43,340 nt of DNA from an uncultured delta proteobacterium (GTDB taxonomy: Bacteria; Desulfobacterota; Desulfuromonadia; Desulfuromonadales; BM103). Below the pieces are notes generated by a model, which saw nothing but the letters and a program-made list of their open reading frames with translations, did not search any database and was not told the DNA's origin. This document shows positions 1,486-43,340 of this stretch, one piece after another. Made by a program: the position numbers and the translations under genes. How positions within the stretch are numbered: the stretch's first letter is position 1; each line of letters opens with the position of its first letter. The DNA lies in NCBI GenBank assembly GCA_963715335.1, contig CAVQRZ010000032.1:1-43340 (forward strand), written 5' to 3'.

Positions 1486-1591
1486 ATACCAGACGCCATT
1501 GCGTCCTTTCCAAGGTATCGACAGTTCGCTGGCTTCACAGCACTTGCATAGATAAAAAGACATCCGATTGCTTCACTTGCAGGAGGTGCCC

Positions 1592-16465: not shown

Positions 16466-16575
16466 GCGCGTGGCGCGTGGCGCGTGGCGCGAAAAAATTT
16501 TAGACCTCTTTTTAAACCTCTAAGTATATTAAGACTTTGACTCTTCTCGCCACGCGCGACTTGCTACGCGCCACG
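16466..16575. repeat. Inverted pair of heptamer arrays (GCGCGTG / CACGCGC) flanking an AT-rich spacer
   Basis: 3.7 copies of GCGCGTG at 16466-16491; degenerate complementary array at 16547-16575. Confidence 0.8.
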
Positions 16576-28271: not shown

Positions 28272-29156
28272 TCAAGTTTTACGCTTCAGCGCCTCGATAC
28301 GCGCTTCAAGTGGCGGGTGGGTCATGAAAAACCGCTTGAACCCCTGCCCTCGGCCACCAGAGATTCCAAAGGCCGCCATTTGGTCGGGCAGGTGCGGTTG
28401 ATCGACGTTGCGGCGCAGTTTTTCAAGTGCCGCAATCATCTTTTCTCGCCCTGCGAGATGGGCACTGCCGGCATCAGCACGGAATTCGCGCTGGCGGCTG
28501 AACCAGAAAACGATGAGGCTGGCGAGGATGCCAAAGACGATCTGGGCGAGGATCGAGGTAATATAAAATGCGGGACCGTGCCCCCTCTCGGTTTTGAATA
28601 CCATGCGATCGATTAAATGACCCACCACCCGCGAAGCAACGATAACGAAAGTATTGACCACCCCTTGGATGAGCGCCAGGGTAATCATGTCACCATTGGC
28701 AACATGACTGACTTCGTGGGCCAATACGGCTTCGGCTTCATCGCGGCTCATGGAGCGAAGCAGTCCTGTACTCACAGCCACAAGAGCATTATTGCGTCGC
28801 ATGCCGGTTGCAAAAGCGTTGACATCAGGAGCGTCATAAATGGCGACCTCGGGCATGCCAATGCCCGCGATCTCGGCCTGTTTTCTTACGGTTTGCACCA
28901 GCCAGGTCTCAACTTCACTGCGGGGCGAAGTGATGACCTGTGCGCCAGTCATACGCTTGGCCGTCCATTTTGAGATGGCCAGTGATATCAGTGACCCACC
29001 AAAGCCGAAGACGGACGCAAAAATCAGTAAATTGTAAAGATCGAGGCCCGCTCCTTGCTCATCGAGAATCCGGTCGACCCCGAACAAGCTCATGACTACG
29101 CCGAGCACGAGCACAATTGCGAGGTTGGTAACAACGAACAGCATGACTCTTTTCAT
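28272..29156 (-). CDS. htpX: Zinc metalloprotease HtpX
   Basis: [30 protein letters not shown]. Confidence 0.96.
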
Positions 29157-29596
29157 GTTTTTCTTTCTCCCTGTGATTTTATGGCAAGACCTATAATATC
29201 AGTAACTTTGCTTTTGCCCTACTAGATGTTAATATCTTGGCGTTAAAAATCAATATCTGTTTATCTATTATTTAGAAGAAAAGGCGATATTGAGGCCTGT
29301 AAGAACGACCATCAATCCAAACAAAAGGGCCATTTGGAAACAGGTGGCCTTTATTATTTGTCAGGGACAATAAAGCAGGAGCGTTCCCTTATTCCTTATG
29401 CCAGCCCATCGCCAGATGAGCCAGTGTCACCAGAATTTTGAAAATCACACCCAGAACGGTTGTCCCTTCCACAGCAGCAAACAAGCCTGCAAGTCCAGGG
29501 AAAGATGATATCCTCTCATTGTAATTGGCGGAGTTAGTGAACGTTGACTCAAAATCGCAGCTTTTAAAAACACTTGTCTCATTAGAGAGGAAAAAC

Positions 29597-31316
29597 GTGG
29601 TTAAAGATCTAAACAAACCGGGTTCAAACGCCGCCGAACTGCGTCGCCAGGCGGAACAGAAACTGCGGGAGAACTCCGCAGAGTTGCCCAATCCACAGGA
29701 CGAGGCAGAGGCGCTGCGACTACTCCACGAATTGCAGGTCCACCAGGTCGAACTGGAGATGCAAAACGCCGAGTTGTGCCGAATTCGGGAAGAGCTCGAG
29801 TTGTCGCGGGACAAGTATGCCGAACTCTATGACTTTGCCCCCGTCGGTTTTTTCTGTCTTGAGCCGTCCGGGCTGATTCGGGAAGTCAATCTGCATGGTG
29901 CGCAATTGCTGGGGGTCGAAAGGCAACGGCTGGTCAACAGACCCTTAAGCGGTTTTGTTGCGGAGGCAGATCAGCGGGAGATTTTGGTCAATCACCTCGC
30001 ATTGGTCTTGCAACAACGGGTCATGTTGAAATGCGAAATCAGCCTCACCAGAAAAGACGGCACTGTGATTTGCGGCAAATTCCAGAGCGTCGCACTTAAT
30101 CACGGCAACCAGGCCGGCATGATCCTGTCCTCCCTCTATGACAACACGGCGCGCCGGCGACTGGAAGAAACTCAGCAAGTTAGCCATGACCAACTGGAGT
30201 CAACCATCGCGCAGCGACACCGAAGAACTGACCAGGGCGAATCGACTGCTTGCGGAGGAAGTCGCCGAACACAAGCGGGCAGAAGAGTCGCTCCAGATCT
30301 CGTATGCGGAAATACAGCGGCTGAAAGACCGTCTCGTTGACGAGAATCTCTACCTGCGACAGGAGGTTTCGAGGGAACAATACAGCGATATCATCGGTCG
30401 TAGCGATGCCCTGACGTATGTGTTCTTCCGGGTCGACCAGGTGGCATCACAACACGTGACGGTTCTGCTCCTTGGCGAGACCGGCACCGGCAAGGGGCTG
30501 GTCGCACGCGCCATCCACAACCGGAGCGCGCGCAGCAAGCAGCCAATGATTACGGTCAACTGTACGTCCTTGCCGGCGAACCTGATCGAGAGCGAACTAT
30601 TCGGTCGTGAAAAGGGCGCATTCACCGGGTCCCACGTCAGACAAATGGGGCGCTTCGAGCTGGCCAATGGCGGCACCATCTTTCTAGACGAAATCGGCGA
30701 GATGCCGACGGACCTGCAATGCAAGCTGCTGAGGGTTATTCAGGACGGCGAGTTCGAGCGTCTGGGCAGTCCCCGTACCACCAAGGTCGATGTCCGGATC
30801 ATCGCGGCCAGCAACCGGAATTTGGAGGAAGAGATCCGTGCCGGTAGGTTCCGGCAAGACTTGTTCTACCGGCTCAATGTCTTCCCCATCACCATCCCGC
30901 CCCTGCGGCAGCGCAGGGATGACATCCCGCTGCTGGTCAATTATTTTGTCGCCAAATTCAACAAGAAATTCGGCAAGAGGATTGTCAGCGTCTCTCCCGA
31001 GACCGTCAGTGCCCTGCAGGCCTATCACTGGCCAGGCAACGTGCGGGAGCTGGAAAATGTGATCGAGCGGGCGGTCATCACCAGCCCGGGTCCCGCGCTC
31101 CAGGTCCTCGACCGGTTCGACACGTTTACAGGGTCTGCGACGCAGGGCGGGGAGGACGTTAAAGCCCTCGCCGAACTGGAGCAGGATCACATCCGTCAGG
31201 TGCTCCAGATTACCGGTTGGCGCATCGAGGGACCCAAGGGTGCAGCGGTTCGCCTTGGGCTCAACCCCAGCACGTTGCGCGCGCGAATGCGGAAATACGA
31301 CATCCGCCGGCAATAA
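29597..31316 (+). pseudogene. PAS + sigma54-dependent activator (FhlA/HyfR-like) split by a one-base insertion at about 30217-30218
   Basis: First frame: LHELQVHQVELEMQNAEL and PAS (LYDFAPVG). Second frame: GETGTGKG, ESELFG, GAFTGS, WPGNVREL, HTH. Removing one base restores STIAQR-TEELTRAN. Could be a sequencing error. Confidence 0.8.
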
Positions 31317-31358
31317 ACGCAACAGAGTAAATAGCCTGACGTCTTCTTTTGCTTGATT

Positions 31359-31502
31359 TGTCATATGTGACGGTTCTGTTGAATATGACGGAAGGCGCCG
31401 ACAGCTTCTCCTTCTGATTTCCCGGACTCCTTCCATTTTACCGTTTCTAATCAGCTGGTTGCAAACGCGGCACAAGCAATTCTTTGTCGGCACGCTCTTT
31501 GC
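31359..31502 (+). promoter_or_regulatory. Sigma54 promoter 1 with tandem enhancer (31359-31390) and IHF site (31449-31461)
   Basis: GG-cacgctcttt-GC at 31489-31502; AATCAGCTGGTTG; TGTCATATGTGACG-gttc-TGTTGAATATGACG. Confidence 0.85.
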
Positions 31503-31616
31503 GATTTAGCTTCTTGACTGAAAACGATTGCGGTGGAGTTTCAGCGAACCTGAGGTGCGTCAGTTCTCAACCAATCTCAAATGAAAATTATCCGTCACCG
31601 CGGACTGGTGTTAACC

Positions 31617-31796
31617 ATGAAATCGAGCAGCAGGGACAAGGTGGACGGAGCGCTTCACAAGGTCAAGGGCAAGGTCAAGGAAGTGGCCGGGAAAATCACC
31701 GATAACCCCAAACTGACGGTTGAAGGCAAAACCGAGCAAGTAACCGGTCAAGTTCAAGGTAAGGTCGGTGAAATCAAGAAGGTTTTTGGTAAGTAG
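31617..31796 (+). CDS. csbD: CsbD family stress protein, 59 aa
   Basis: KVKGKVKEVAGKITDNPKLTVEGKTEQVTGQVQGKVG. Confidence 0.92.
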   Translation: MKSSSRDKVDGALHKVKGKVKEVAGKITDNPKLTVEGKTEQVTGQVQGKVGEIKKVFGK

Positions 31797-31859
31797 TGCG
31801 AATGCCCTGTGCGCCAGAGGACACAGGGAGGGAAAATGCCGTGGATTAAGGAGTACTCT

Positions 31860-31925
31860 ATGGGGCTTGTCATTGGTGTTTTAGTTGTCGTTATCCTCGT
31901 TGTTCTCATTATGAGAATAACATAG
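31860..31925 (+). CDS. 21-aa hydrophobic micropeptide A (MGLVIGVLVVVILVVLIMRIT)
   Basis: AAGGAG RBS 6 nt before ATG; paralog immediately downstream; in-frame ATG at 31836 is an alternative start. Confidence 0.72.
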   Translation: MGLVIGVLVVVILVVLIMRIT

Positions 31926-31962
31926 CCGTATGGCACATGGTCTACAAGGAAAGGAGAGTGTT

Positions 31963-32028
31963 ATGGGATTATTGATTGCGGTTCTGGTTGTCGTTATTCT
32001 TGTCATTGTCATAATGAGATTAACTTAG
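31963..32028 (+). CDS. 21-aa hydrophobic micropeptide B (MGLLIAVLVVVILVIVIMRLT)
   Basis: AAAGGAG RBS; 16/21 identical to peptide A with many synonymous changes. Confidence 0.75.
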   Translation: MGLLIAVLVVVILVIVIMRLT

Positions 32029-32243
32029 CCTGGAAGCTCCTCCCCGATAATATTGGTGAGGCTGTCGAAATCAAAGCTTTTCTCGCAGCCCGAATGTGGG
32101 ACGCTTCATCTGAAGGGTGACAACGTTCGACTTCAGCTTGCATTCGGTCGCGGGCTCAGGGGCAGCGTCCCGACTTTTTTCTCTGTGGAACTTGCTCGTG
32201 ATGGCTAGAGGTTCATAACATATTCACCCATGCGGCTGCGTTT

Positions 32244-32927
32244 ATGCAAATTGAAGTCCATGATTTGACCAAGCTCTACGGTCCTAAAAGAGGCCTTCTG
32301 CCAATCAGCTTTGAAGTACAACAAGGCGAACTGATCGCAGTTGTCGGTCACAATGGTGCCGGAAAATCCACTCTATTGAAAATCCTGGCCAACTGGATTC
32401 TTCCGGACAGTGGCCAAGCCGTGATTGACGGGATCGATCTGAAAAACCGGACAGCTGTCGTTAAAAAAGTCGGTTTTGTTCCAGAAGCACCTAATCTGTT
32501 TGACTTTTTTACCGTTGAATATAACCTCAAACTGTTCGCCTCTCTCTTTCAGGTCTCCTTTCTGCGGGTGGATGAAGTCTTGAGAGAGTTTAATTTGCTG
32601 CCCTTTCGACAAAACAAAATACAGGTGCTGTCAAAAGGCCTGAAGCAACGAGTGAACATCGGGCGTGCCCTGCTGGCAGATCCTCCGGTGCTGCTTCTTG
32701 ACGAGCCGACATCGGGTCTGGATTTCGAGATGACTAAAGAACTCTACCGGCTGTTGAAAACTATTCATAACGCCGGAAGAACGATATTTTTCACCTCCCA
32801 TCGGCCTGAGGAGGTAAAAACCCTGGCGACACGCATCATGGTTCTGCACGAGGGCAGATTGATTTTCGATGGCTCTCCACCGGAATATTTTCAATCAGAC
32901 GTTCATGAAAGCCTGTACGCGATATGA
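32244..32927 (+). CDS. ABC-2-type transporter ATP-binding protein
   Basis: GHNGAGKST, LSKGLKQR, LLLDEPTSGLD, TSH. Confidence 0.92.
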   Translation: MQIEVHDLTKLYGPKRGLLPISFEVQQGELIAVVGHNGAGKSTLLKILANWILPDSGQAVIDGIDLKNRTAVVKKVGFVPEAPNLFDFFTVEYNLKLFASLFQVSFLRVDEVLREFNLLPFRQNKIQVLSKGLKQRVNIGRALLADPPVLLLDEPTSGLDFEMTKELYRLLKTIHNAGRTIFFTSHRPEEVKTLATRIMVLHEGRLIFDGSPPEYFQSDVHESLYAI

Positions 32928-33955
32928 TAAGGACTCTCCTGATCCTTGTATTGAATGACCTGGCTATAGCCATAAAAAATAGAACCGTTTTCCTGATACT
33001 ATTTATCCCTTTCTTTGTTTTCATCTCCTTGGCTTTTATCGACCGCCCCGACGTGGATGCAGAGACGGTAAGGATCGGCTTCATCCGCAATGACACCTAT
33101 GCGCCAGTTATCATGCAGAGCGTCACGGCTGCCGAAAAAATTATCACTGTGACATGGGTTCAGAATGAAAATGACGGTAAACAGCTTTTAAAGGAGAAAA
33201 AAATAGACGGGGTTTTGCTTGGGCATAAAAACGAACCCGGAAGGCTCTCCCTTATTGTTCTAAAAAGTGAGTCATTCAAGACACTTGCCATCATAGAAAG
33301 TTTTTCGGCTTTGCAGAAAGCGGCGGAAGGCGGCCGGGAAAACTGGATCACTGGCATTGAACCCCTTTACGCTGGCGACATCCAAAAACAGACTTTGCCG
33401 ACCTGGATCTTGATGATCGTTCTGCTCGTTGGTTTCATAATTCTTCCGGCTCAAATTGCCGAGGAAAAAGAAAAGAAGCTGCTTCTGGCGCTTCTGCAGA
33501 CGCCCGTAAGCGAGGCTCAATGGTTGATTGCCAAAGTGCTGACCGGAATGATCTTGATTGTTATTGCTGTGTCGATTCTACATCTCCTGGGTGGCTTCGG
33601 CGTGGTAAACCTCCTCGACTATGTCGCATTCATTGTCGCCGGCGGTTTCTGCTTCAGCGCCTTCGGGATTTTTCTGGGTTTTCTCTGCCAAACGCAGGCA
33701 AGCGCACGCACTCTGGGGGTTGTTGTTTATCTGCCGCACCTGCTGCCTTCCGCCCTGTCCGATTTTTCCCAACAATTGACCGTCGTTGCACCGTTGCTGC
33801 CGTCCTACCAGTTTTATCAGCCGCTTAAATCCATTCTGCTGGAAGATGGCCAGATAGCGACCATGCCTTTCGAATGGGCTTATTTGATACTCGTGGGTTC
33901 GCTCACCTTCTACCTCTCCCATGTCTTGATGAAAAGACGCTGGTTGATGAAGTGA
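32924..33955 (+). CDS. ABC-2-type transporter permease
   Basis: One N-terminal TM, extracytoplasmic loop, five further TMs; EEKEKK...LLQTPV...IAK; ATGA overlap. Confidence 0.88.
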   Translation: MIRTLLILVLNDLAIAIKNRTVFLILFIPFFVFISLAFIDRPDVDAETVRIGFIRNDTYAPVIMQSVTAAEKIITVTWVQNENDGKQLLKEKKIDGVLLGHKNEPGRLSLIVLKSESFKTLAIIESFSALQKAAEGGRENWITGIEPLYAGDIQKQTLPTWILMIVLLVGFIILPAQIAEEKEKKLLLALLQTPVSEAQWLIAKVLTGMILIVIAVSILHLLGGFGVVNLLDYVAFIVAGGFCFSAFGIFLGFLCQTQASARTLGVVVYLPHLLPSALSDFSQQLTVVAPLLPSYQFYQPLKSILLEDGQIATMPFEWAYLILVGSLTFYLSHVLMKRRWLMK

Positions 33956-34299
33956 GAACATCAGTCAGGACGGCCGGGATGAGCTTGTTTATGTCATCGT
34001 CGACGGAGCAGCCAGGCATCCGCTCGACGCCGACATTGAAGATCTGGATAATCCCTCGGCATCCGTGACGTACTGGAGTTGGCACTGTTGAAAACTGCTC
34101 TCTGCAACACCCTCACCCTGGGCAGGTGCTTCAGGACTAATCTCGCCGGTAGGATTTTTTTGTAGTTAAAAACAAATAAAGCTGAGACAAACTTTGGTGC
34201 GTTCATGGTGGTACTAATAGGGTCGTTGAATGTCAGATTGAATAAATATTTGCAATCTCCCTGCCTCCACATGAAGCAAGACAAGAGGTTTTTAATAGT

Positions 34300-35595
34300 A
34301 TGGTTATGAATAATGCTGTGTGGTTTCTGTTCGTTGGTGGCCTGCTGCTCACCATGGGACTAACCGCTCCGGCAATTAAACGGTTGCCTGTTACCTCGGC
34401 AATTATCTATCTGGCCTTGGGAATCCTGGTAGGCCCAACTGTGCTGGGTTTTTTCCATTTCAACCCGCTCAAGGAATCGGCGCTGCTGGAGGTCTTGACC
34501 GAGGTAGCGGTGCTGATTTCACTGTTTGCCGCCGGCGTTAAAATGCCGGTTCCCGTGACCTTTGCGCGCTGGCGCGCGCCGATTCTGCTGGCGTTTTTCG
34601 CCATGGCAACCACAGTGGCACTGGTCACCATTTTTGGCCATTATCTACTCGGTTTACCCATCGGTGCCGCTGTACTGCTCGGTGCCATTATCGCCCCAAC
34701 CGACCCGGTACTGGCCACTGAAGTGCAGATTCGCCATCCGGGCGATCGCGATCGGCTACGGTTTACCTTAACCTGTGAAGCGGGCATGAACGACGGCAGC
34801 GCTTTTCCGTTCGTCATGCTCGGTCTGGGCCTGCTCGGCTTGCACGAGCTGGGTGAGTTTGGTCAGCGTTGGATCCTGGTTGATGTCCTCTGGGCTACGA
34901 TCGCGGGGATTGCCATCGGCGTGGCGGCGGGAAGCGGGCTTGCGCACCTGGTAGTACGCTTGCGCCGCAACCACTCGAATGACGGTCTGCTTGACGATTT
35001 CCTGAGCATGGGGCTGATCGGTGCGGTCTACGGCTTGAGTCTGTTGTGTCACGCCTGGGGCTTTCTGGCCGTATTTTTTGCCGCCGTGGCGCTACGCCAA
35101 ACCGAACTAAGGCTCGCCGGCGGTGCCCCGAAGCTCCGGGCACAGTTGCAAACAGACACGCCGGGTACGCATGATGATGTGACGACGTCACAACATATCA
35201 GCAAAGCCTCCCTGGTATTCAAGGAACATCACGAACGAGTGGCAGAACTCATTCTGGTTCTGCTGATTGGAGGGACGTTATTCCTGGACTCCTGGAGCTG
35301 GCGCGCCGTGGGTTTCGCACTATTTCTATTCACCATTGCGCGGCCATTGAGTGTTTTGACCGCGCTGATTGGTACCCGCACACCGTTGCGGATACGCAAA
35401 ATGACCAGTTGGTTCGGGGTCCGCGGTATTGGTTCGCTCTATTATCTCATGTACGCTATACAGCACGGCCTTCCGGAAGAACTGACCATAGAACTGATTC
35501 ACCTGACACTGGTGGTGGTTACGCTTTCCATTGTCGTTCACGGCCTCAGTATAAAACCGATGATGCATCGTTTCCGGCGACTGCATGGGGGCTAG
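34300..35595 (+). CDS. CPA1 (NhaP-type) cation:proton antiporter
   Basis: APTDPVLA, EAGMNDG, WFGVRGIGSLYY; many TMs; start 34300 or 34306. Confidence 0.9.
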   Translation: MVMNNAVWFLFVGGLLLTMGLTAPAIKRLPVTSAIIYLALGILVGPTVLGFFHFNPLKESALLEVLTEVAVLISLFAAGVKMPVPVTFARWRAPILLAFFAMATTVALVTIFGHYLLGLPIGAAVLLGAIIAPTDPVLATEVQIRHPGDRDRLRFTLTCEAGMNDGSAFPFVMLGLGLLGLHELGEFGQRWILVDVLWATIAGIAIGVAAGSGLAHLVVRLRRNHSNDGLLDDFLSMGLIGAVYGLSLLCHAWGFLAVFFAAVALRQTELRLAGGAPKLRAQLQTDTPGTHDDVTTSQHISKASLVFKEHHERVAELILVLLIGGTLFLDSWSWRAVGFALFLFTIARPLSVLTALIGTRTPLRIRKMTSWFGVRGIGSLYYLMYAIQHGLPEELTIELIHLTLVVVTLSIVVHGLSIKPMMHRFRRLHGG

Positions 35596-35699
35596 AGAAA
35601 AAACAGAGACCCGGGTAGTGCCGGGGTTGGCCCAGGCTAAAGACGCTGGCTGATGAAGCGAGGGCAACAGCAAGACTTACAGGTTTTTCTCAACGCATT

Positions 35700-35842
35700 T
35701 GTCGCATCTGGCAGTTCCGTCGGATATGACGGATACCTCTGACGACTTTCCCTGCCATGTTCTTACCCACTTTTTATTTTCTTAGCAATCTCAGCATCTT
35801 GAGACAGTAGTATCGGCAAACCTTCGCTGGCACGCTCGTTGC
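35700..35842 (+). promoter_or_regulatory. Sigma54 promoter 2 with tandem enhancer (35700-35731) and IHF-like site (35789-35801)
   Basis: tGG-cacgctcgtt-GC at 35829-35842; TCTCAGCATCTTG; TGTCGCATCTGGCA-gttc-CGTCGGATATGACG. Confidence 0.85.
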
Positions 35843-36042
35843 GACATATCATTACTAGAAACGCCTGTCTTTGACCGTTCCTGCACCAAAAAGCCGTCGT
35901 GCGGCGGTGGTCTTTTTATGGAACGGCAATAAGCGTTCACGGCGATATGGCAATGTACGGCCGAAGAGAAAAATGGCTTCGCCCGACGATAGCTCAAGAA
36001 TCATCAATCAATGCAGCATAACTTTCAGGAAGGCAGGATGAT

Positions 36043-36258
36043 ATGAAACACACAGCGGTCACTATTATGATTCTCGCATTGGCTCTTTCCTTCGGTTGCA
36101 CGGGGATGTCCTCAAAACAGCAATCAACAGTGAGCGGGGCGGGCATCGGCGCCGTCGGCGGCGGGGTGCTCGGCGCAGTGACTGGAGGGAGCCCGGTGAC
36201 TGGCGCTGTTATCGGCGCCGGCGTTGGCGGGGCGGCAGGATACCTCCTTGAGGATTAA
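36043..36258 (+). CDS. Glycine-zipper lipoprotein (OsmB-like)
   Basis: Lipobox SFGC; GAGIGAVGGGVLG and GAVIGAGVGGAAG; AGGAG RBS. Confidence 0.85.
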   Translation: MKHTAVTIMILALALSFGCTGMSSKQQSTVSGAGIGAVGGGVLGAVTGGSPVTGAVIGAGVGGAAGYLLED

Positions 36259-36327
36259 GCCGTCCACCTGATCTGCCACATTTAGCATTACTGCTGAATG
36301 TGGCGGGTTGTGCAGACGGCATTTTTT
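36259..36327 (+). terminator. Long imperfect hairpin with T tract (probable terminator)
   Basis: GCCGTC...GCCACATTTAGCA-ttac-TGCTGAATGTGGC...GACGGC-ATTTTTT. Confidence 0.55.
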
Positions 36328-36528
36328 CCCTGTAGGGTTTGCGCTTTCCGGTTTCCCCCGTACTTCTAGCCACTTGCGGTTACAACATTCAACAGCTACA
36401 GCCGGCAAGTTAATTGCACTCTACAATTAAGGGAGAACTCGACGACAACCCACACCTGGACGCTGCAGGGCATAAGGCTTCTGTGGAAAGGTGTGGGAAC
36501 TTAGTTACAGGAAGAAGGAACAGAAGTT

Positions 36529-37299
36529 ATGACCGCAAAAATATCACAAAGAATTATCTATGCCGTGCCAGTTGTTATCGCAGCGTTGACGTTGCTCACC
36601 TTCAGCCCGTCTGTGCAGGCGGCAAGTACTGACAGCAACATCGAATCAGCGGCCAAGAAGTCGCACGTATTCACCAGCTATCTCAAGGACGATGATATCA
36701 AGGTTGACGCCAAAGACGGTAAAGTCACCCTGACGGGGAGCGTCGCCACGGAAAACCACAAGACCATGGCCGGGGAGACCGTTTCGAACCTCTCCGACGT
36801 CAAGAGTGTCGACAACCAGCTGGCAATAAAGGGGGAACAACCCTCCAAGATGAGTGATGCGTGGCTTCTGACCAAAGTGAAAACCACCCTCTTATTTCAC
36901 CGCAGCGTAAGCATCTCCACCAAGGTCGACGTGAAAGACGGCATCGTGACTCTGGGTGGTGCTGCCGACAATCAGGCCCAGAAAGAATTGACCACGGAAT
37001 ACGCTGCGGATATTGACGGGGTCAAAGACGTCAGGAATGAAATGACCGTGGCAACAGCCAGCAAAGTGGCGCAAACAGTCGGCGATAAGATCGACGACGC
37101 CTCCATCACCACCATGGTCAAAATGACATTGCTCGGCCATCGCTCGACCAGTGCCTTTAAAACCTCGGTCACGACCAAGGATGGTGTGGTCACTTTGTCT
37201 GGCAAAGCCGACAACGCAGCCGAAATCGCCTTGGCAGGCAAACTCGCCAACGACGTCAACGGCGTACAGTCGGTGCAGAACAACATGACTGTCATCTAA
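36529..37299 (+). CDS. Periplasmic protein with three BON domains (OsmY-like)
   Basis: Signal peptide ending VQA; three V-x3-DGxVTLxG...VxxVxN repeats. Confidence 0.92.
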   Translation: MTAKISQRIIYAVPVVIAALTLLTFSPSVQAASTDSNIESAAKKSHVFTSYLKDDDIKVDAKDGKVTLTGSVATENHKTMAGETVSNLSDVKSVDNQLAIKGEQPSKMSDAWLLTKVKTTLLFHRSVSISTKVDVKDGIVTLGGAADNQAQKELTTEYAADIDGVKDVRNEMTVATASKVAQTVGDKIDDASITTMVKMTLLGHRSTSAFKTSVTTKDGVVTLSGKADNAAEIALAGKLANDVNGVQSVQNNMTVI

Positions 37300-37322
37300 T
37301 TCACGCGTCTTAACCCTAGGAA

Positions 37323-37350
37323 TCAGCAGACCCGTAAGTGGGTCTGCTGA
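37323..37350. other. Stem-loop after the BON gene (no T tract)
   Basis: TCAGCAGACCC-gtaagt-GGGTCTGCTGA. Confidence 0.55.
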
Positions 37351-37404
37351 GCTTCCAGCGCAGCCGGCGAGGCTGCGTATCCAAAGCTTGTGAGGAGGTA
37401 CAAA

Positions 37405-37558
37405 ATGAAACCTTATTCGCTAATCGGCATCATTCTGATTGTGGTCGCCGTCGCAGCTTTTGCCTACCAGGGGATCAGCTACACGACCGATCAAGCATAA
37501 GGAGATAGTCAACATTTCAGTGTGGGTCGGCGTGGTGGCCATCATTGCTGGCAAGTAA
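37405..37558 (+). pseudogene. Deleted/frameshifted DUF3185-like small membrane protein
   Basis: GAGGAGG RBS; MKPYSLIGIILIVVAVAAFAYQGISYTT stops at 37500; another frame continues KEIVNISVWVGVVAIIAGK; the middle segment and end of the second TM are missing. Confidence 0.6.
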
Positions 37559-37628
37559 ATCTTAATGATAACCTGAATCATTGACTTCAGCTTGACAGCC
37601 GGAGGGTCCGGCCGACGGCGACCCGACC

Positions 37629-37772
37629 CGTTATATTTGACAGATATGCTAAATATGATGGCGGCCGATGGCGGCAAACCTTTCGCTGCGCTCCTTCAAT
37701 TGAAGCTTTCCCTCGTAAAATCAGCATATTGCCCTCACTTCGGCAACCTCAGGTTTTCGGCACGTTCGTTGC
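37629..37772 (+). promoter_or_regulatory. Sigma54 promoter 3 with tandem enhancer (37629-37660) and IHF site (37719-37731)
   Basis: GG-cacgttcgtt-GC at 37759-37772; AATCAGCATATTG; CGTTATATTTGACA-gata-TGCTAAATATGATG. Confidence 0.82.
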
Positions 37773-37814
37773 GATTGACTATGTTAAGAGTCATTGCATC
37801 CAAGGAGACAAACC

Positions 37815-37970
37815 ATGTTAGGAACCATCTTGATCGTCGTCATTATCTTGCTATTGCTGGGCGCTCTGCCGACTTGGCCGCACAGCCGGCAGTGGGGGTA
37901 CGTACCGAGTGGAGGTGTTGGCTTGATCCTCTTGATCCTTCTCATCCTGATGTTGATGGGCCGGATTTAA
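37815..37970 (+). CDS. DUF3309 family small membrane protein, 51 aa (not in the ORF track)
   Basis: MLGTILIVVIILLLLGALPTWPHSRQWGYVPSGGVGLILLILLILMLMGRI; AAGGAG RBS. Confidence 0.9.
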   Translation: MLGTILIVVIILLLLGALPTWPHSRQWGYVPSGGVGLILLILLILMLMGRI

Positions 37971-38014
37971 CTGCAGTATCTGTCGTATCTCACCGAGAGG
38001 AGGTGAATGAGTTC

Positions 38015-38206
38015 ATGCCGTTAATTCAACTGGTCGTGATATTGGTCGTGGTGGGCGTGGTGCTCTGGCTCATCAACCAGTTCATCCCCATGGCGGGATC
38101 CATAAAAACAATACTGAATGTCGTCGTCGTGGTCGTCGTCATTTCTTGGCTGCTGAATATTTTTGGTGTCATCAGTCACTTTCCCAACATCAATGTAGGC
38201 AGATAA
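38015..38206 (+). CDS. Thivi_2564-like small membrane protein, 63 aa
   Basis: VVGVVLWLINQFIPMAGSIKTILNVVVV; GGAGGTG RBS. Confidence 0.82.
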   Translation: MPLIQLVVILVVVGVVLWLINQFIPMAGSIKTILNVVVVVVVISWLLNIFGVISHFPNINVGR

Positions 38207-38241
38207 GCCTGTGTCAGCCCCTTTTGCCGAGGATGGAGTCC

Positions 38242-38583
38242 ATGATTGACGCGAAGATCAAAATGTGCGTGCCTGCTAACAAGCGCATGGAAGTCCTGCA
38301 AACCATCAAAACCATGCTTGACACTATTCGCAACGAGCAGGGGTGTGTCAGTTGCATCTGCTGCGTAGATGTAGAGGATGAGCACATCATCATCTTCACG
38401 CAGGAGTGGGACACCAATGAGAATCTGGCCGCACATCTGCAATCCGACTGTTTCACGGTCCTGCTTGGCGCGATGAAGCTACTCTCCATCGAACCGGAGA
38501 TCAGGATCAACACCATTGCCGCCACGGCGGGTGCGGAGGTCATCAAGGCGGCACGGATGAAACCCCGGCGAGACTTGCCATGA
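38242..38583 (+). CDS. Antibiotic-biosynthesis-monooxygenase (ABM) domain protein
   Basis: IRNEQGCVSC...QEW...LAAHLQSDCF. Confidence 0.85.
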   Translation: MIDAKIKMCVPANKRMEVLQTIKTMLDTIRNEQGCVSCICCVDVEDEHIIIFTQEWDTNENLAAHLQSDCFTVLLGAMKLLSIEPEIRINTIAATAGAEVIKAARMKPRRDLP

Positions 38584-38632
38584 CAAGACAAGGGCGCCAT
38601 AACACTGCCTACAAACCAACAAGGAGACCATT

Positions 38633-38947
38633 ATGTTCAAGACAAATCGCATTGTGAAGTTTCTGGCCTGTCTGGTCCTGTTTGCTTCTTTCCTGGGGTG
38701 TGCTTCAACCGCAAAGCAGGAAAGCACCGGCCAGTACATTGACAACTCCGTGATCACCTCTAAGGTGAAAGCAGCTATCTTTGACGAATCAAGCTTGAAA
38801 ACCATGCAGATCAAAGTGGAGTCCTACAAGGGCGAAGTGCAGCTGAGCGGTTTTGTTGATTCGGCAGCGAGCGTCCAGAAGGCCGGCGAAGTTGCCCGCA
38901 GCGTTGAGGGGGTCGTCGCTGTGAAAAACGACCTGGTTGTCAAATAG
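38633..38947 (+). CDS. Single-BON-domain lipoprotein
   Basis: Lipobox FLGC; STGQYIDNSVITSKVK...GEVQLSGFV; AAGGAG RBS. Confidence 0.92.
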   Translation: MFKTNRIVKFLACLVLFASFLGCASTAKQESTGQYIDNSVITSKVKAAIFDESSLKTMQIKVESYKGEVQLSGFVDSAASVQKAGEVARSVEGVVAVKNDLVVK

Positions 38948-39149
38948 CATTACCGGCTGGCAGACCAATCCCTGCGCCGATGGCCGACACCCGACCGGAT
39001 CGGGTGTCGCCACGGCAGCAGGATTCGGGCCGAGAACAACCCAGGTCAAGAAGCAACCTGCTATTTCACCTTAACGAAATTTTCTTTACCCCTGGCGCCC
39101 CCTCACTGGCGGGCGTCTACAGCGATCATATCTTGAGAGTGAGGTCATC

Positions 39150-39767
39150 ATGAAAACCCATTTTGCCAGAACGTTCCTGCTCTTTGTCCTGGTTCTCAAT
39201 TTGCTTGGCGGTTGTGCATCCATTCCAGAAGAACACAAGGGGGCGACAACCGGTGCGGGGATTGGCGCAGCAACCGGAGCACTGGCCGGAGCCATGCTGG
39301 CCGGTGACGGCTCACGCACCCAGGGAGCACTCCTCGGCGGGTTGGCCGGAGCGCTGATCGGGGGAGTGATCGGCAACTACACGGTCGACCAGAAAAGGGA
39401 TGCCTCGGATACGTCCAATCGATATGACTACAACGCTTCTGCGGGGGTTTTGGTCAGGATTGAAAGCACGTCAATCAGTCCTGACAGGGTCTACCCAGGT
39501 GACCGGGTCGATCTCCGGGCAACGTATGCAGTCATGGCCCCCCAGAGTAACTCCAGGATTGCCGTGACCGAGATTCGCGAAATTCGCTTCAATGGCGAAC
39601 TGGTCGGCAACCCCCAGATAAGCACGGACCATATCGCCGGCACCTATGATTCAAATGTGCCGCTGTTCCTTGCCAACGACGCAAAACGCGGGACCTATCA
39701 AGTCATCACAACCATCAGGACGCAGGAGAGTAGTGACTCTCGCGAAGCTTCGTTTGTTGTGCGCTGA
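39150..39767 (+). CDS. Glycine-zipper lipoprotein with C-terminal beta-sandwich-like domain
   Basis: Lipobox LGGC; GAGIGAATGALAG and GALLGGLAGALIGG. Confidence 0.82.
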   Translation: MKTHFARTFLLFVLVLNLLGGCASIPEEHKGATTGAGIGAATGALAGAMLAGDGSRTQGALLGGLAGALIGGVIGNYTVDQKRDASDTSNRYDYNASAGVLVRIESTSISPDRVYPGDRVDLRATYAVMAPQSNSRIAVTEIREIRFNGELVGNPQISTDHIAGTYDSNVPLFLANDAKRGTYQVITTIRTQESSDSREASFVVR

Positions 39768-39855
39768 TTTTCAACGTGATGACAGTGGTAGTAAACCGGG
39801 CGCCGCAAGAATGTTTCCAGACGGAGGCTGCGAGGATGGATAAGCGAACCGAGTT

Positions 39856-40545
39856 ATGAACAAAATCGTCGTAGTGATCAACGTTGTTCTGGTCAGCTTT
39901 GTCCTGGTTTTCGTTACCGGATGCCTCGTCACTGGAGGAGTCCCTGCGGATTCCTCTTCGACCCGGCAGCCATCCACCTCGGCGGCCGGCGGAAAAGTTG
40001 ATTCTGTCCAGGTTGATCGGCTGCGGAGGCTGATGATTCCCCTTCTGCGGACGATGGACCACCCGATATCGACAAGACAGGTTCAAATCGAGGTAGTTGA
40101 TGATCCGCAGATCAATGCCGGGAGCGCCGGAAGCGGCCAGTTTATCGTGACAACGGGGCTACTGAGCAAGGCCAATGACGTGCATCTGGAATCGATTCTG
40201 GCCCACGAGATTGCCCATGATGACCTCGACCATGTTGCCAAGGCCCAGGCTCTGGGGGCGGGTTTGAATGTCGCTACTGTACTAATGGACCAGTTTTTCC
40301 CGGGGAGCGGGCAACTCACCCCGATTGCCGGGAACTTGGTGATTCGGGCTTACGGTCGGAACGAGGAGTACGCGGCGGACTTGCATGGGGTCGTGCTCCT
40401 GCGCAGGATACATCCCGACGGTAAGCAGAGAATGGTCAATACCATGGTCTGGCTGCAGAAGACGACGGGAGGCAGCGACGGCGGATTTTTCTCAACCCAC
40501 CCCGCTACCGACGACAGGATCGACAGAATCCGAAGCATGCCCTGA
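39856..40545 (+). CDS. M48 family metallopeptidase lipoprotein
   Basis: Lipobox VTGC; INA, LAHEIAH, EEYAAD, FSTHP...RI. Confidence 0.9.
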   Translation: MNKIVVVINVVLVSFVLVFVTGCLVTGGVPADSSSTRQPSTSAAGGKVDSVQVDRLRRLMIPLLRTMDHPISTRQVQIEVVDDPQINAGSAGSGQFIVTTGLLSKANDVHLESILAHEIAHDDLDHVAKAQALGAGLNVATVLMDQFFPGSGQLTPIAGNLVIRAYGRNEEYAADLHGVVLLRRIHPDGKQRMVNTMVWLQKTTGGSDGGFFSTHPATDDRIDRIRSMP

Positions 40546-40677
40546 GGATTCAATATGCAGAGGTTTCCCCACTTCGCTCAAACCCTCGACAAACAGGAGG
40601 ATAATGGGTGAGGGGACCGGCCAAGAGAGAAGATAGTTCATGTGTGTTATATAGACCTGCTACGATTGGGAGAAACA

Positions 40678-41493
40678 ATGCAGCTCCGAGCCGGATACGA
40701 ACTGATTTACAGCTTCCCACAGCAAACACCGATAATCCTCCTCGTGAATATCCACCATTCGCGGGGTGCCGATCTGGTTGTCCCTGATCGCCTTATTACC
40801 GAGCCGCCGATATCGATTACCGGTTATCATGACGCCTTCGGCAACTGGTGTAACCGTGGACTGGCACCTGCGGGTCGCCTCCGCCTGACAACTGACGCTA
40901 TTGTCAGAGATAACAACCATCCCGACGAAATCTTTCCTGACGCCAGGCAGGACTCCGTGCAGCATCTGCCTGAAGAAACCCTGGTCTACCTGCTGGGCAG
41001 CCGCTATTGCGAGACTGACTTGTTGTCTCAGACGGCCTGGCAACTCTTCGGCGGCACGACTCCCGGATATCCGCGCGTGCAATGCATCTGCGATTACGTT
41101 CATAATCATATTGCCTTCAACTACCAGAACGCCAGCGTAACCCGCGGTGCAGTAGAGGCCTTCAACCAACGGACCGGGGTCTGCCGCGACTACGTACATC
41201 TCGCTATGACCTTCTGCCGCTGCCTGAATATCCCGGCGCGATACTGCACCGGCTACCTGAGCGATCTCGGGACACCCCTGCCTCACGGAGTTGGCGATTT
41301 TGCAGCATGGTTCGAAGCCTGGATAGGCGGTCGCTGGCACACCTTCGACCCGCGCAACAATATGCCCCGCCGGGGGCGCATCCTGATGGCCCGCGGCCGA
41401 GATGCCTGCGATGTCGCCATCACGACGACGTTTGGACCCAACACGCTGGAGAGCTTCCGGGTCTGGACCGATGAAATTCCGGACAGTGAATGA
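40678..41493 (+). CDS. Transglutaminase-like protein
   Basis: GVCRDYVH, PARYCTGY, FDPRNN; DFAAW occupies the usual HAW position; GGAG RBS before ATG 40678. Confidence 0.88.
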   Translation: MQLRAGYELIYSFPQQTPIILLVNIHHSRGADLVVPDRLITEPPISITGYHDAFGNWCNRGLAPAGRLRLTTDAIVRDNNHPDEIFPDARQDSVQHLPEETLVYLLGSRYCETDLLSQTAWQLFGGTTPGYPRVQCICDYVHNHIAFNYQNASVTRGAVEAFNQRTGVCRDYVHLAMTFCRCLNIPARYCTGYLSDLGTPLPHGVGDFAAWFEAWIGGRWHTFDPRNNMPRRGRILMARGRDACDVAITTTFGPNTLESFRVWTDEIPDSE

Positions 41494-41510
41494 CCAGGAG
41501 TCGCCCACTG

Positions 41511-42377
41511 ATGTCTTTTCTTACAGTAAATCACGCCACCATCTACCGTTACCGCGAGCCCGTCATCCTCGGTGAACACCGTATGATGTTCCGGCCACGC
41601 GAGAGCCACGACCTGCGGTTAATCGGTGTCGACCTCGCGATCAAGCCGCAACCCGTGCACCTGCGCTGGCTGCACGATCCCTTTGATAACTCCGTCACCA
41701 TCGCAACGTTTGAAGGCACCACGTCCGAACTCAGATTCGATAGCACCGTGACACTGGAGCATTTCGAGGCCACCCTGCCGGAGTATACGCTTGAGGATTA
41801 TGCCCGTAAGTATCCCTTCCGCTATGCCGATGAGGACTTCCCCAATCTCGTTCGCGCCCTGAATCGTGACTTCCCGAGCGAGCGAGTCGCCAAATGGGCG
41901 TTGCAGTTTCTCGATCCAGCGGAAACCACCGACACTATGAAGCTGCTGCGCGCAATGACCTTCGGCATCAGTGAGCAGATACCCTACAACCGCCGTGCTG
42001 AAAAGGGCGTGCAGACGGCTGATGAGACGTTACTGATCGGTCGCGGTAGTTGCCGGGATTTTGCCGTACTGATGATCGATGCGGTCAGATCCCTCGGCAT
42101 CGCCGCACGGTTTGTCAGTGGATACATTTTCGTCCCCGATAGCTCCGGCCTCGCCGGGGGTGGAGCCACCCATGCCTGGATGCAAGCCTATCTCCCCGGT
42201 GCCGGCTGGATCGACTTCGACCCCACCAACAGCATCATTGGCAACCGCAATCTCATTCGTGTCGGCGTTGCCTGGGCTCCCGAACACGTCCTTCCTTTGT
42301 GGGGGAGCTATTCCGGCCCCGCAATGGCCTTCATCGACATGGAGGTCACCGTGACCGTTTCAGAAACGCACAGGTGA
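41511..42377 (+). CDS. Transglutaminase-like protein with N-terminal domain
   Basis: GSCRDFA, ARFVSGY, THAW, DFDPTN give an intact C-H-D triad; start 41511 (AGGAG) or 41490. Confidence 0.9.
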   Translation: MSFLTVNHATIYRYREPVILGEHRMMFRPRESHDLRLIGVDLAIKPQPVHLRWLHDPFDNSVTIATFEGTTSELRFDSTVTLEHFEATLPEYTLEDYARKYPFRYADEDFPNLVRALNRDFPSERVAKWALQFLDPAETTDTMKLLRAMTFGISEQIPYNRRAEKGVQTADETLLIGRGSCRDFAVLMIDAVRSLGIAARFVSGYIFVPDSSGLAGGGATHAWMQAYLPGAGWIDFDPTNSIIGNRNLIRVGVAWAPEHVLPLWGSYSGPAMAFIDMEVTVTVSETHR

Positions 42378-42384
42378 CGATTCC

Positions 42385-43101
42385 GTGACGGCGGCTCAAA
42401 TTCTCCGTCCGCAGGGAGCTGGCCGCTTTGTTCTCTTCTGCGACCATGCCAGCAATAATATCCCGGCAGAACTTCACCAACTTGGTTTGCCGGTGGCTGA
42501 GCGTGCCCGCCACATTGCGTGGGATATCGGAGCGGCGGGCGTCACCGCGGCCCTCTCGGAAATCCTTGATGCCCCGGCGATACTCTGCAACACCTCGCGG
42601 CTTGTGATCGACTGCAACCGCCAGCTTAATGCTGCGGACCTCATCCCGGAGATAAGCGACGGCACAACGATCCCTGGCAATCTGCACCTCAGCGAGACAG
42701 CCAGAACGACCCGCATTGAGCGTTGGTTTCACCCGTATCACAACGCGATTGAGTCGGTCTTGCTGGATCGCGAAGCAAAAGGGGTGCAATCTGTAGTGGT
42801 CTCCATTCATTCCATGACGGCTGCGCTTTCCGGGGAACTAAGACCCTGGCATATTGCGATATCCAGCTATCTTGATCGTCGCATTGCCGAGCCTGTTCTC
42901 GCTGCACTGCGCCTGCCCGGCGATATCGTTGTGGGCGACAACCAGCCGTACGATGTGAATCCGGTAATAGACTACAGCATTCCATTCCATGCTTTGCGCC
43001 GGAGACTGCCTCACATCCAGGTGGAATTCCGGCAGAATGAAATATTTGATACAACGACCCAGTACCAATGGGCACTGCGTTTCGCTCAGCCATTGATGTA
43101 A
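42385..43101 (+). CDS. N-formylglutamate amidohydrolase family protein
   Basis: CDHAS, HIAWDIGA, SRLVIDCNR, SIHS, GDNQPY, VEFRQ. Confidence 0.9.
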   Translation: MTAAQILRPQGAGRFVLFCDHASNNIPAELHQLGLPVAERARHIAWDIGAAGVTAALSEILDAPAILCNTSRLVIDCNRQLNAADLIPEISDGTTIPGNLHLSETARTTRIERWFHPYHNAIESVLLDREAKGVQSVVVSIHSMTAALSGELRPWHIAISSYLDRRIAEPVLAALRLPGDIVVGDNQPYDVNPVIDYSIPFHALRRRLPHIQVEFRQNEIFDTTTQYQWALRFAQPLM

Positions 43102-43219
43102 TGTGGACGTCAGGCTCCTTATAGACACCGTATATTACTGTCCAAGCCAGCCGGATGACTCCTTAGGATCATTTTTTAGGAGTGGATTTCGGAAAACTGG
43201 CTGATGCAGGGGGGCGTAA

Positions 43220-43259
43220 AAGTGAACGACCACGGGCTCACGCCCGTGGTCGTTCACTT
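43220..43259. repeat. Perfect 18-bp inverted repeat (REP-like or IS200/IS605-end-like hairpin)
   Basis: AAGTGAACGACCACGGGC-tcac-GCCCGTGGTCGTTCACTT. Confidence 0.85.
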
Positions 43260-43340
43260 CAATGATTCTCGAATATTGCATCGATATAAAATGAAAATTA
43301 CAACGGCTCGCCTGTGTTACAGGAAACTTATTCCACAGTC

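Follow-up and report, generated by a model that had tools for sequence, protein, structure and literature searches.

The enhancer-IHF (integration host factor)-sigma54 mechanism is textbook knowledge. As described in the available text of PMC7175178 and PMC7962754, canonical sigma54 promoters have their activator sites about 100-140 bp upstream, an IHF site in between and a -24/-12 core, and the same layout of upstream activating sequence, IHF site and bacterial enhancer-binding protein seen in PspF-pspA, DmpR-Po, NifA and NorR is found at the locus studied here, which lies in a 43,340-nt stretch of DNA from an uncultured delta proteobacterium (the window, i.e., the whole stretch that was analysed). 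Judged from its sequence, the window carries four homologous copies of one predicted 150-bp promoter cassette, which very probably constitute the regulon of a PAS-AAA+-HTH (helix-turn-helix) activator encoded upstream and would drive genes of the general-stress type. In contrast to the canonical systems, one cassette is reused here before many unrelated genes, with a spacing constant to within 1-2 bp and in more than 100 natural copies, and the operator is built from five half-sites, in steps of 18 and 13 bp. The predicted sigma54 regulon would be new and its reused promoter is unusually rigid, a reading we consider real and well supported; the mechanism is canonical.

The sigma54 regulons of Desulfovibrio vulgaris resemble this arrangement in having an activator gene beside the target promoter and palindromic motifs (PMC4641369, available text). 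The DVU2894 motif, yGTCA-N6-TGACr, has its half-site in common with the window operator, and the DVU2956 site is made up of three half-sites (both in the available text of PMC4641369). The former is the nearest described motif found, differing in its spacing, the motif logos of that paper lying outside the comparison. Unlike in D. vulgaris, the half-sites in the window are present as GTCA-N4-TGAC in tandem, the targets are of the stress type and not flagellar, and the organism belongs to another class. A description of the operator or regulon was not found in the literature searched, figures, RegPrecise and subscription journals being outside reach; searching exact motif strings yielded unrelated papers only, and the strings do not occur in supplements 1-12 of PMC2996986 and PMC2700814, where alignments given as pictures would escape.

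Each cassette combines a 34-bp operator, the fifth half-site, an IHF-type site and a sigma54 -24/-12 element at fixed distances (Table 1), with a GG-N10-GC core in all four copies. A sequence-only reading of the window had proposed three sigma54 promoters, and all three are confirmed, with the GG of the -24 element at 31489, 35829 and 37759; the strict pattern GGCACGYTCKTTGCGA matches three times in the 3.3-Mb genome, each time at one of these promoters. The enhancer-to-GG distances of 99, 98 and 99 bp stand as well (second boxes ending at 31390, 35731 and 37660), and the IHF-type 13-mer ends 27 intervening bases (28 by coordinate) before the GG with 0, 1 and 0 mismatches to WATCARNNNNTTR. A combined pattern of IHF+27+GGCAC-N5-TTGC, fitted after the fact, has three matches in the window, three in the genome and none in 100 random Markov windows. 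Elements and geometry hence support sigma54 promoters with enhancer and IHF site. Less precise was the description of the enhancer boxes as YGTC-N6-GACR, which are present but represent a loose consensus (0/1, 1/0 and 1/3 mismatches), and a regulon of three promoters turned out to be one short: a fourth cassette (P4, 36273-36417, GG at 36404) precedes the gene with three BON domains within the very interval of that reading, bringing the total in this genome to four. The assembly, a mixture of haplotypes, contains one rpoN (PF04552 on contig C25, E 6e-66) as well as ihfA and ihfB, with IHF alpha and beta scoring above the PRK cut-offs.

For defining the operator independently of the window, orthologs of the adjacent activator at 69-76%, held by seven of 40 relatives, were used. 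A Gibbs search of ten promoters from these seven loci, with the window left out, resulted in a 34-bp motif, CCGTCATAT-N16-ATATGACGG, with weaker inner half-sites and an end 96-98 bp upstream of the GG in the training promoters. In the assembly (G000), this motif picks out four places, each of them inside the window and scoring 25-41 bits, with the next best at 14.4 bits; the genome-wide scan for the composite motif that the sequence-only reading had suggested, run over 6.6 million positions, returned the same four and no others. In the operator unit, 34 bp hold two palindromes of the GTCA-N4-TGAC type, and a TGACGG-like fifth half-site follows 7 bp further on. The latter shows about 90% per-base conservation in 64 metagenome copies (here and below, metagenome figures hold among the matches listed), and has no more than one mismatch in 45 of the 75 copies from genomes and one or two mismatches in all four window copies.

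Scanning metagenomes with the operator alone yielded at least 126 matches, 120 with enough flank and 91 non-redundant. A sigma54 element (GG-N9-TG[CT]) is found 95-99 bp past the operator in 85 of the latter and at exactly 97 bp in 66 of these 85, compared to 3/82 on the opposite side and 0-1/91 at other offsets. Likewise, the IHF match ends 27 bp before the GG in 72 of the 85 copies and 26 or 28 bp before it in another seven, with none elsewhere between 20 and 35 bp; in copies from genomes, the IHF site is at the fixed position in 44 of 75. Altogether, more than 130 non-redundant natural cassette copies were collected. The operator pattern had 0 matches in viral contigs. Two operators (L044:19988 and L310:1500) are flanked on both sides by promoter-like elements (at about 88 and 98 bp), possibly reflecting divergent use of one operator. 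An orphan operator in a genome in which no ortholog was found (L129:1500, G027) has a spacer that is shorter by 20 bp, along with a mutation in the -12 element, and is probably a remnant.

The gene upstream of the first cassette possesses the features of an enhancer-binding protein, namely a sigma54-activator AAA+ domain and a C-terminal HTH, and a single intact frame joining sensor and ATPase is missing in this assembly owing to a +1 shift near 30218. Its start codon at 29597 was assigned from a ribosome-binding-like site, and this frame runs to a stop at 30340. In 33 ortholog loci, of which 32 have an intact frame, a homologous N-terminal part is in frame in 28, another open N-terminal part is present in four and an internal stop is found in one (G075). 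The frameshift appears somewhat more credible as a real mutation, and the regulon is therefore probably silent or weak in this strain; a precedent for a frameshifted activator is DVUA0024/25 of D. vulgaris (PMC4641369, available text). In-frame ATGs of the downstream frame at 30138 and 30186 lack an evident ribosome-binding site, and a sensor-less, possibly constitutive product from these starts is possible but not favoured.

The competing explanation, an assembly error with the regulon intact in this strain, is tenable, if less readily believed. The contig represents an alternative (minor) haplotype in an assembly full of duplicate contigs at 94-99% identity, the extra base is absent from three related contigs from two public runs (about 87-90% alike; these are relatives, and no read of the own strain spans the base), all four cassettes remain recognisable, and the four deviations of the activator at conserved residues are not extreme (median 1; as many in 11 of 119 homologs). 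On the other hand, the window's long genes are all open in the 26.6 kb shared with contig C1, where the one frame break is on the C1 side, the extra base is outside any homopolymer, a second island gene (37405-37500) is broken too, and the G075 ortholog demonstrates that interrupted copies exist. A genome-wide test, counting 2 frameshifted loci in 54 gene bins, also speaks against an error.

With respect to relationship, the designation of the activator as FhlA-like in the sequence-only reading applies to the AAA+/HTH part, for which FhlA/HyfR is the best NCBIfam match (many homologs are so labelled by JGI), but not to the input domain, which is PAS and not a set of GAFs as in FhlA, a member of the GAF group according to the available text of PMC7175178. 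The FhlA equivalog was rejected, as NF011958 gives 393.9 bits, less than half of the cut-off of 830, with the match confined to positions 322-688 of 692. An intact 579-aa homolog likewise remains below 830 (405.5 bits). Neither here (PAS) nor in the homologs (PAS or receiver) is the N-terminal GAF domain of FhlA present, and hydrogenase or formate genes are not among the targets. Named homologs are from Geobacter grbiciae, Oryzomonas rubra, Trichlorobacter thiogenes and Desulfuromonadales, which makes Desulfuromonadia the probable class of the host. Comparison with solved structures matched generic activators only. A 76% identical activator (P0104) has the source label Pedobacter sp. MAG, representing either a transfer across phyla or a mis-binned contig. 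Besides, some cassettes (L186:2238-3815, L193:1-1536 and L038 5482) precede PAS proteins starting like the activator or a second activator copy, so that other strains may have feedback or cascades; no cassette is present upstream of the activator in the window.

The assignment of the operator to this activator is mainly deduced from co-occurrence. In 185 genomes of the order, with 10 candidates scored in each, orthologs were called at E of 1e-150 or below, one partial gene at 81% being added, and operators at up to two mismatches. The ortholog is present in 47 genomes and the operator in 46, with both in 43, the ortholog only in four, the operator only in three and neither in 135. Consequently, the operator occurs in 43 of 47 genomes with ortholog versus 3 of 138 without, in 37 of 40 ortholog genomes after removing the seven that had informed the pattern, and in 0 of 15 genomes whose best match is the next paralog tier; the reversed operator pattern, as a control, is found in 0 of 185. 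When three mismatches are allowed, sites appear in two of the four genomes with the ortholog only. In a wider sample of 401 genomes of the phylum, operator matches were obtained in 5 of 16 genomes within the class and 4 of 385 outside, where the ortholog adjoins the site in three of the four; the fourth (G488) shows just a 67% HTH match elsewhere in the genome. In many orthologs the operator directly follows the activator gene, often less than 60 bp from the stop codon, and distant sites exist too, for example six with the same motif over one 3.96-Mb chromosome (G187). One genome (G112) bears the operator with just an HTH fragment of the activator beside the site. From ortholog to ortholog, the recognition segment of the HTH hardly varies, and nothing closely similar to it occurs elsewhere in G000, in which the activator is the only member of its own subfamily. 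The claim that the adjacent activator binds the boxes thus fares well in that co-occurrence and adjacency mark it as the likely binder, while its frameshift had been overlooked. The analysis would provide a candidate operator and regulon for a large uncharacterised activator subfamily (47/185 genomes of the order).

Several findings weigh against this assignment. Because the first cassette lies next to the activator gene, part of the co-occurrence is due to joint transfer. As this linkage inflates the association and the genomes, being kin, are not independent, no p-value is claimed. Two genomes (G067 and G120) have the ortholog and no operator even at three mismatches, whereas G054, G099, G027 and G248 have the operator without ortholog. 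A promoter above threshold is missing at 12 of 99 genome operator sites and at 29 of 167 overall. In addition, the activator is frameshifted in this assembly, and its activator loop reads GAFTGS, as in 5 of 120 homologs, compared to GAFTGA in 114. It might be argued that the promoters are real and that another protein, either one of the 24 sigma54 activators in G000 or an island repressor, binds them while the adjacent activator merely co-travels, which would also account for cassettes persisting next to a frameshifted gene and for the few genomes with operator and no ortholog. We consider this unlikely, as other activators are found throughout the order and the operator is not, the motif is unchanged at sites scattered over a whole chromosome, and the recognition segment is conserved as described. 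The check for a conserved second island regulator consisted in a comparison with the window's own genes, and the related-locus search in genome contigs was swamped by generic activators, only 3 of 80 loci being orthologs.

Turning to the spacing, 87 promoters at operator sites in 28 genomes show operator-to-GG distances of 94-100 bp in 79 cases and 85-88 bp in six, with none at 89-93 bp; the two outliers are at 103 bp and, mis-registered, at 114 bp. In three of the short copies, the IHF site is shifted from 27 to 17 bp before the GG (10 bp lost), and in three others, which are mutual orthologs, the distance from operator to IHF site is reduced from 70 to 58-59 bp (11-12 bp lost). Further shortened cassettes are found at 87 and 77 bp. 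The shortened copies have thus lost about 10 or 20 bp, i.e., one or two helical turns. These helical-step deletions support the earlier proposal that the spacing is under selection and fit the expected architecture, because a looped, IHF-bent complex tolerates such changes. An engineered sigma54 system is reported to depend on phase with a period of 10 bp (PMC6710252, available text), and helical-phase dependence is discussed for DmpR-Po in the available part of PMC13682980. Points to the contrary are that the short-spacer cases amount to about six events, some perhaps related, and that gaps of 94, 100 and 103 bp also exist. With more than 130 fixed-geometry copies and rare 10-/20-bp deletions, the collection provides a test set for enhancer/IHF/sigma54 phasing.

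Duplication without selection, in which the copies are alike by descent and the exact spacing is of no consequence, is rather improbable, although descent contributes. The statement that the intervening DNA has diverged is correct inasmuch as free spacers in the window are 24-41% identical in pairs, but these spacers are still homologous, with 45-55% identity to the consensus of the metagenome spacer profile, above their own shuffles (p 0.0005-0.0025). Mean pairwise identity of free spacers is 0.61-0.62 among metagenome copies and 0.41 among genome copies versus 0.29 when shuffled. Grouped by downstream gene, spacer likeness is 0.65 for the same and 0.62 for different genes (permutation p 0.07), and values of 0.40 within and 0.38 between genomes indicate no general recent within-genome expansion. 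Individual cases are more striking, as two cassettes before unrelated genes in G173 have free spacers 89% alike, and the cassette before a BON gene (G045) is 87% like the one before csbD (G163). Since all copies go back to one duplicated cassette, their shared spacing is partly due to descent. Nevertheless, conservation falls off abruptly at both ends, to 0.33 upstream of the operator and to 0.31 past about +30 from the GG, just after the start site, the length in the window copies is held at 96-97 bp despite the low spacer identity, and large length changes are found at -10/-11 and -20, the range from -4 to -8 being empty. Selection acting on particular spacer positions, via DNA bending or extended IHF contacts, could add to the likeness. 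The whole promoter would accordingly be a reused unit in the sense of PMC3575422, the available text of which describes, as putative mobile promoters, homologous upstream regions that recur ahead of unrelated genes, both in one genome and across genomes. Those were defined at 80% identity or more and are mostly without known function, whereas most copies here have diverged further, and the cassette combines a defined anatomy with a candidate regulator (compared with the available text of PMC3575422). The cassettes, which precede at least 15 unrelated protein families, may hence serve as an example of whole-promoter reuse with known anatomy.

Although the 34-mer is near-palindromic and often less than 60 bp from a stop codon, its interpretation as an RNA hairpin (terminator, REP-like repeat or small RNA) is most improbable and largely refuted, as 85 copies show no compensatory covariation (pairing 0.76 versus 0.76 permuted) and there is no Rfam match, so that the palindrome reads as a protein site, while the 34-mer is also not among the terminator-like sites listed and is associated with the promoter in a polar manner at fixed distance.

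Following the standard sigma54 mechanism, two activator dimers would occupy the two palindromes, whose centres are 18 bp apart, and a third dimer might be anchored by the lone fifth half-site. IHF would introduce a bend some 35 bp ahead of the -24 element, and the looped activator hexamer would open the sigma54 complex. Operator, IHF site and core would have to share the right helical face, and length changes would therefore occur in steps of about 10 bp, while the cassette may spread as a unit to new genes. A broader proposal, advanced tentatively, is a mobile sigma54 general stress response of Geobacter-type anaerobes, with one activator having a swappable PAS/receiver input, a regulon growing by promoter copying, copies recording the helical-phase rule and five half-sites templating the hexamer.

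Table 1. Positions of the activator gene, the cassette elements and the likely target genes in the window.
Feature	Position	Strand	Remarks
Island with activator and regulon	29276-43340	.	left border ~29276, right end at or beyond contig end
Activator N-terminal part: coiled coil and PAS	29597-30217	+	PAS PF00989, E 3e-7
Extra base shifting activator frame	30218	+	frames differ by +1
Activator C-terminal part: sigma54 AAA+ and Fis-type HTH	30219-31316	+	PF00158, E 4e-69; PF02954, E 2e-8
P1 operator	31358-31391	+	35.8 bits, matrix trained outside window; fifth half-site 31399-31404
P1 IHF-type site	31449-31461	+	0 mismatches
P1 sigma54 -24/-12 element	31489-31502	+	predicted start ~31514
csbD, likely P1 target	31617-31796	+	Pfam
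Two tiny hydrophobic open reading frames, likely P1 targets	31836-31925, 31963-32028	+	
ABC-2 ATPase and permease, likely P1 targets	32244-32927, 32924-33955	+	Pfam
P2 operator	35699-35732	+	25.3 bits; fifth half-site 35740-35745
P2 IHF-type site	35789-35801	+	1 mismatch
P2 sigma54 -24/-12 element	35829-35842	+	predicted start ~35854
Glycine-zipper lipoprotein, likely P2 target	36043-36258	+	OsmB-like, below cut-off
P4 operator	36273-36306	+	31.5 bits on minus strand, 24.9 on plus; fifth half-site 36314-36319
P4 weak IHF site	36364-36376	+	3 mismatches
P4 sigma54 -24/-12 element (GG-N10-GC)	36404-36417	+	97 bp past operator; predicted start ~36429
Three-BON OsmY-like protein, likely P4 target	36529-37299	+	PF04972 x3; OsmY model below cut-off
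Broken small membrane-protein gene	37405-37500	+	follows 73-aa ortholog for 28 codons, stop at 31 aa
P3 operator	37628-37661	+	40.8 bits; fifth half-site 37669-37674
P3 IHF-type site	37719-37731	+	0 mismatches
P3 sigma54 -24/-12 element	37759-37772	+	predicted start ~37784
DUF3309, likely P3 target	37815-37970	+	
Thivi_2564-family membrane protein, likely P3 target	38015-38206	+	
ABM-domain protein, likely P3 target	38146-38583	+	open reading frame
BON lipoprotein, likely P3 target	38633-38947	+	

The genes behind the cassettes (Table 1) suggest that these likely drive functions of the general-stress type. The P1 genes (31617-33955) are presumably co-transcribed; in locus L035, a cassette directly precedes the ABC pair. 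The P3 target gene order behind the cassette is repeated in L033 and L036. Of the 54 genes that come first after a metagenome cassette, 28 fall into Pfam families, 15 in number and led by DUF3309 (7), CsbD (4), rubrerythrin (3), ABM (2) and PAS (2), with single instances of Usp, PRC-barrel, G6PD, CHRD, DUF1499, epimerase, hydrolase, beta-barrel, carboxypeptidase-regulatory and Ig-like proteins. Targets of the CsbD, OsmY, Usp and PRC type are hence present when window and metagenome cassettes are considered together. According to the available text of PMC7083833 and PMC7660261, csbD is a target of SigB and EcfG, and stress induces the CsbD, BON and PRC-barrel genes jointly. Among the general stress regulons of SigB (Bacillus), EcfG (Alphaproteobacteria) and RpoS, the first two thus share csbD as a target with the window, whereas the predicted control here is by sigma54 and an enhancer-binding protein on a patchily distributed island and not by an alternative sigma70-family factor. 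Less favourable to a stress role is that it is read from family names and that 26 of the 54 first genes, picked by a rough rule, have no family. The data suggest sigma54 control of a stress-type regulon in metal-reducing bacteria. For the broken gene at 37405-37500, the label DUF3185 was not supported, and its 73-aa ortholog has no Pfam or NCBIfam family.

The window is the entire contig C32 of assembly G000 (3.30 Mb, 43 contigs, 55.5% GC, contamination 6.87%), and its positions 116-29275 have a second copy at G000:C1:146-30384 (94-97% identity over 1715-29275). Identity ends at 29275, beyond which C1 continues to glmS without activator or promoters, and the activator/promoter region is therefore regarded as an island, at least 14 kb in size and with a GC content of 53.7% versus 57.2%, which is borne by one haplotype and missing from the sibling haplotype of the same assembly. 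As the assembly holds many haplotype pairs, the window is probably the sibling strain's version of the region. In four same-genus genomes (83-96% complete), activator ortholog, operator and csbD were not found. The empty island site on C1 (L361:2385-2706, corresponding to G000:C1:30384-30705) is about 320 bp from the glmS stop; the glmS 3' end is a known landing area of Tn7-like elements. A search for TniQ gave no match, but its control matched nowhere either, and the right end of the island is not assembled; a transposase was not seen in the window, the right end of the island missing from the assembly. A tRNA search returned no genes, and sigma70-like (13 vs 9.6) and terminator-like sites (21 vs 13.9) are near chance level.

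Besides the likely targets, the island encodes a CPA1 Na+/H+ antiporter, a glycine-zipper lipoprotein, an M48 peptidase, two transglutaminase-like proteins and a formylglutamate amidohydrolase (34300-35595 and 39150-43101), all without a cassette of their own. In the shared backbone, an outer-membrane beta-barrel gene (1568-4165) is open for 865 aa in the window and frame-broken near 3940 in its C1 partner. At 16500-16575, the window has a 50-bp insertion relative to C1 that starts with short tandem repeats and is a member of an intergenic repeat family with dozens of copies in G000 and G002. The htpX gene (28272-29156) was found in only one of four same-genus genomes, in another gene context. 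Moreover, positions 18180-20801 encode a GH17-GT2 fusion protein, a layout typical of cyclic beta-glucan synthases.

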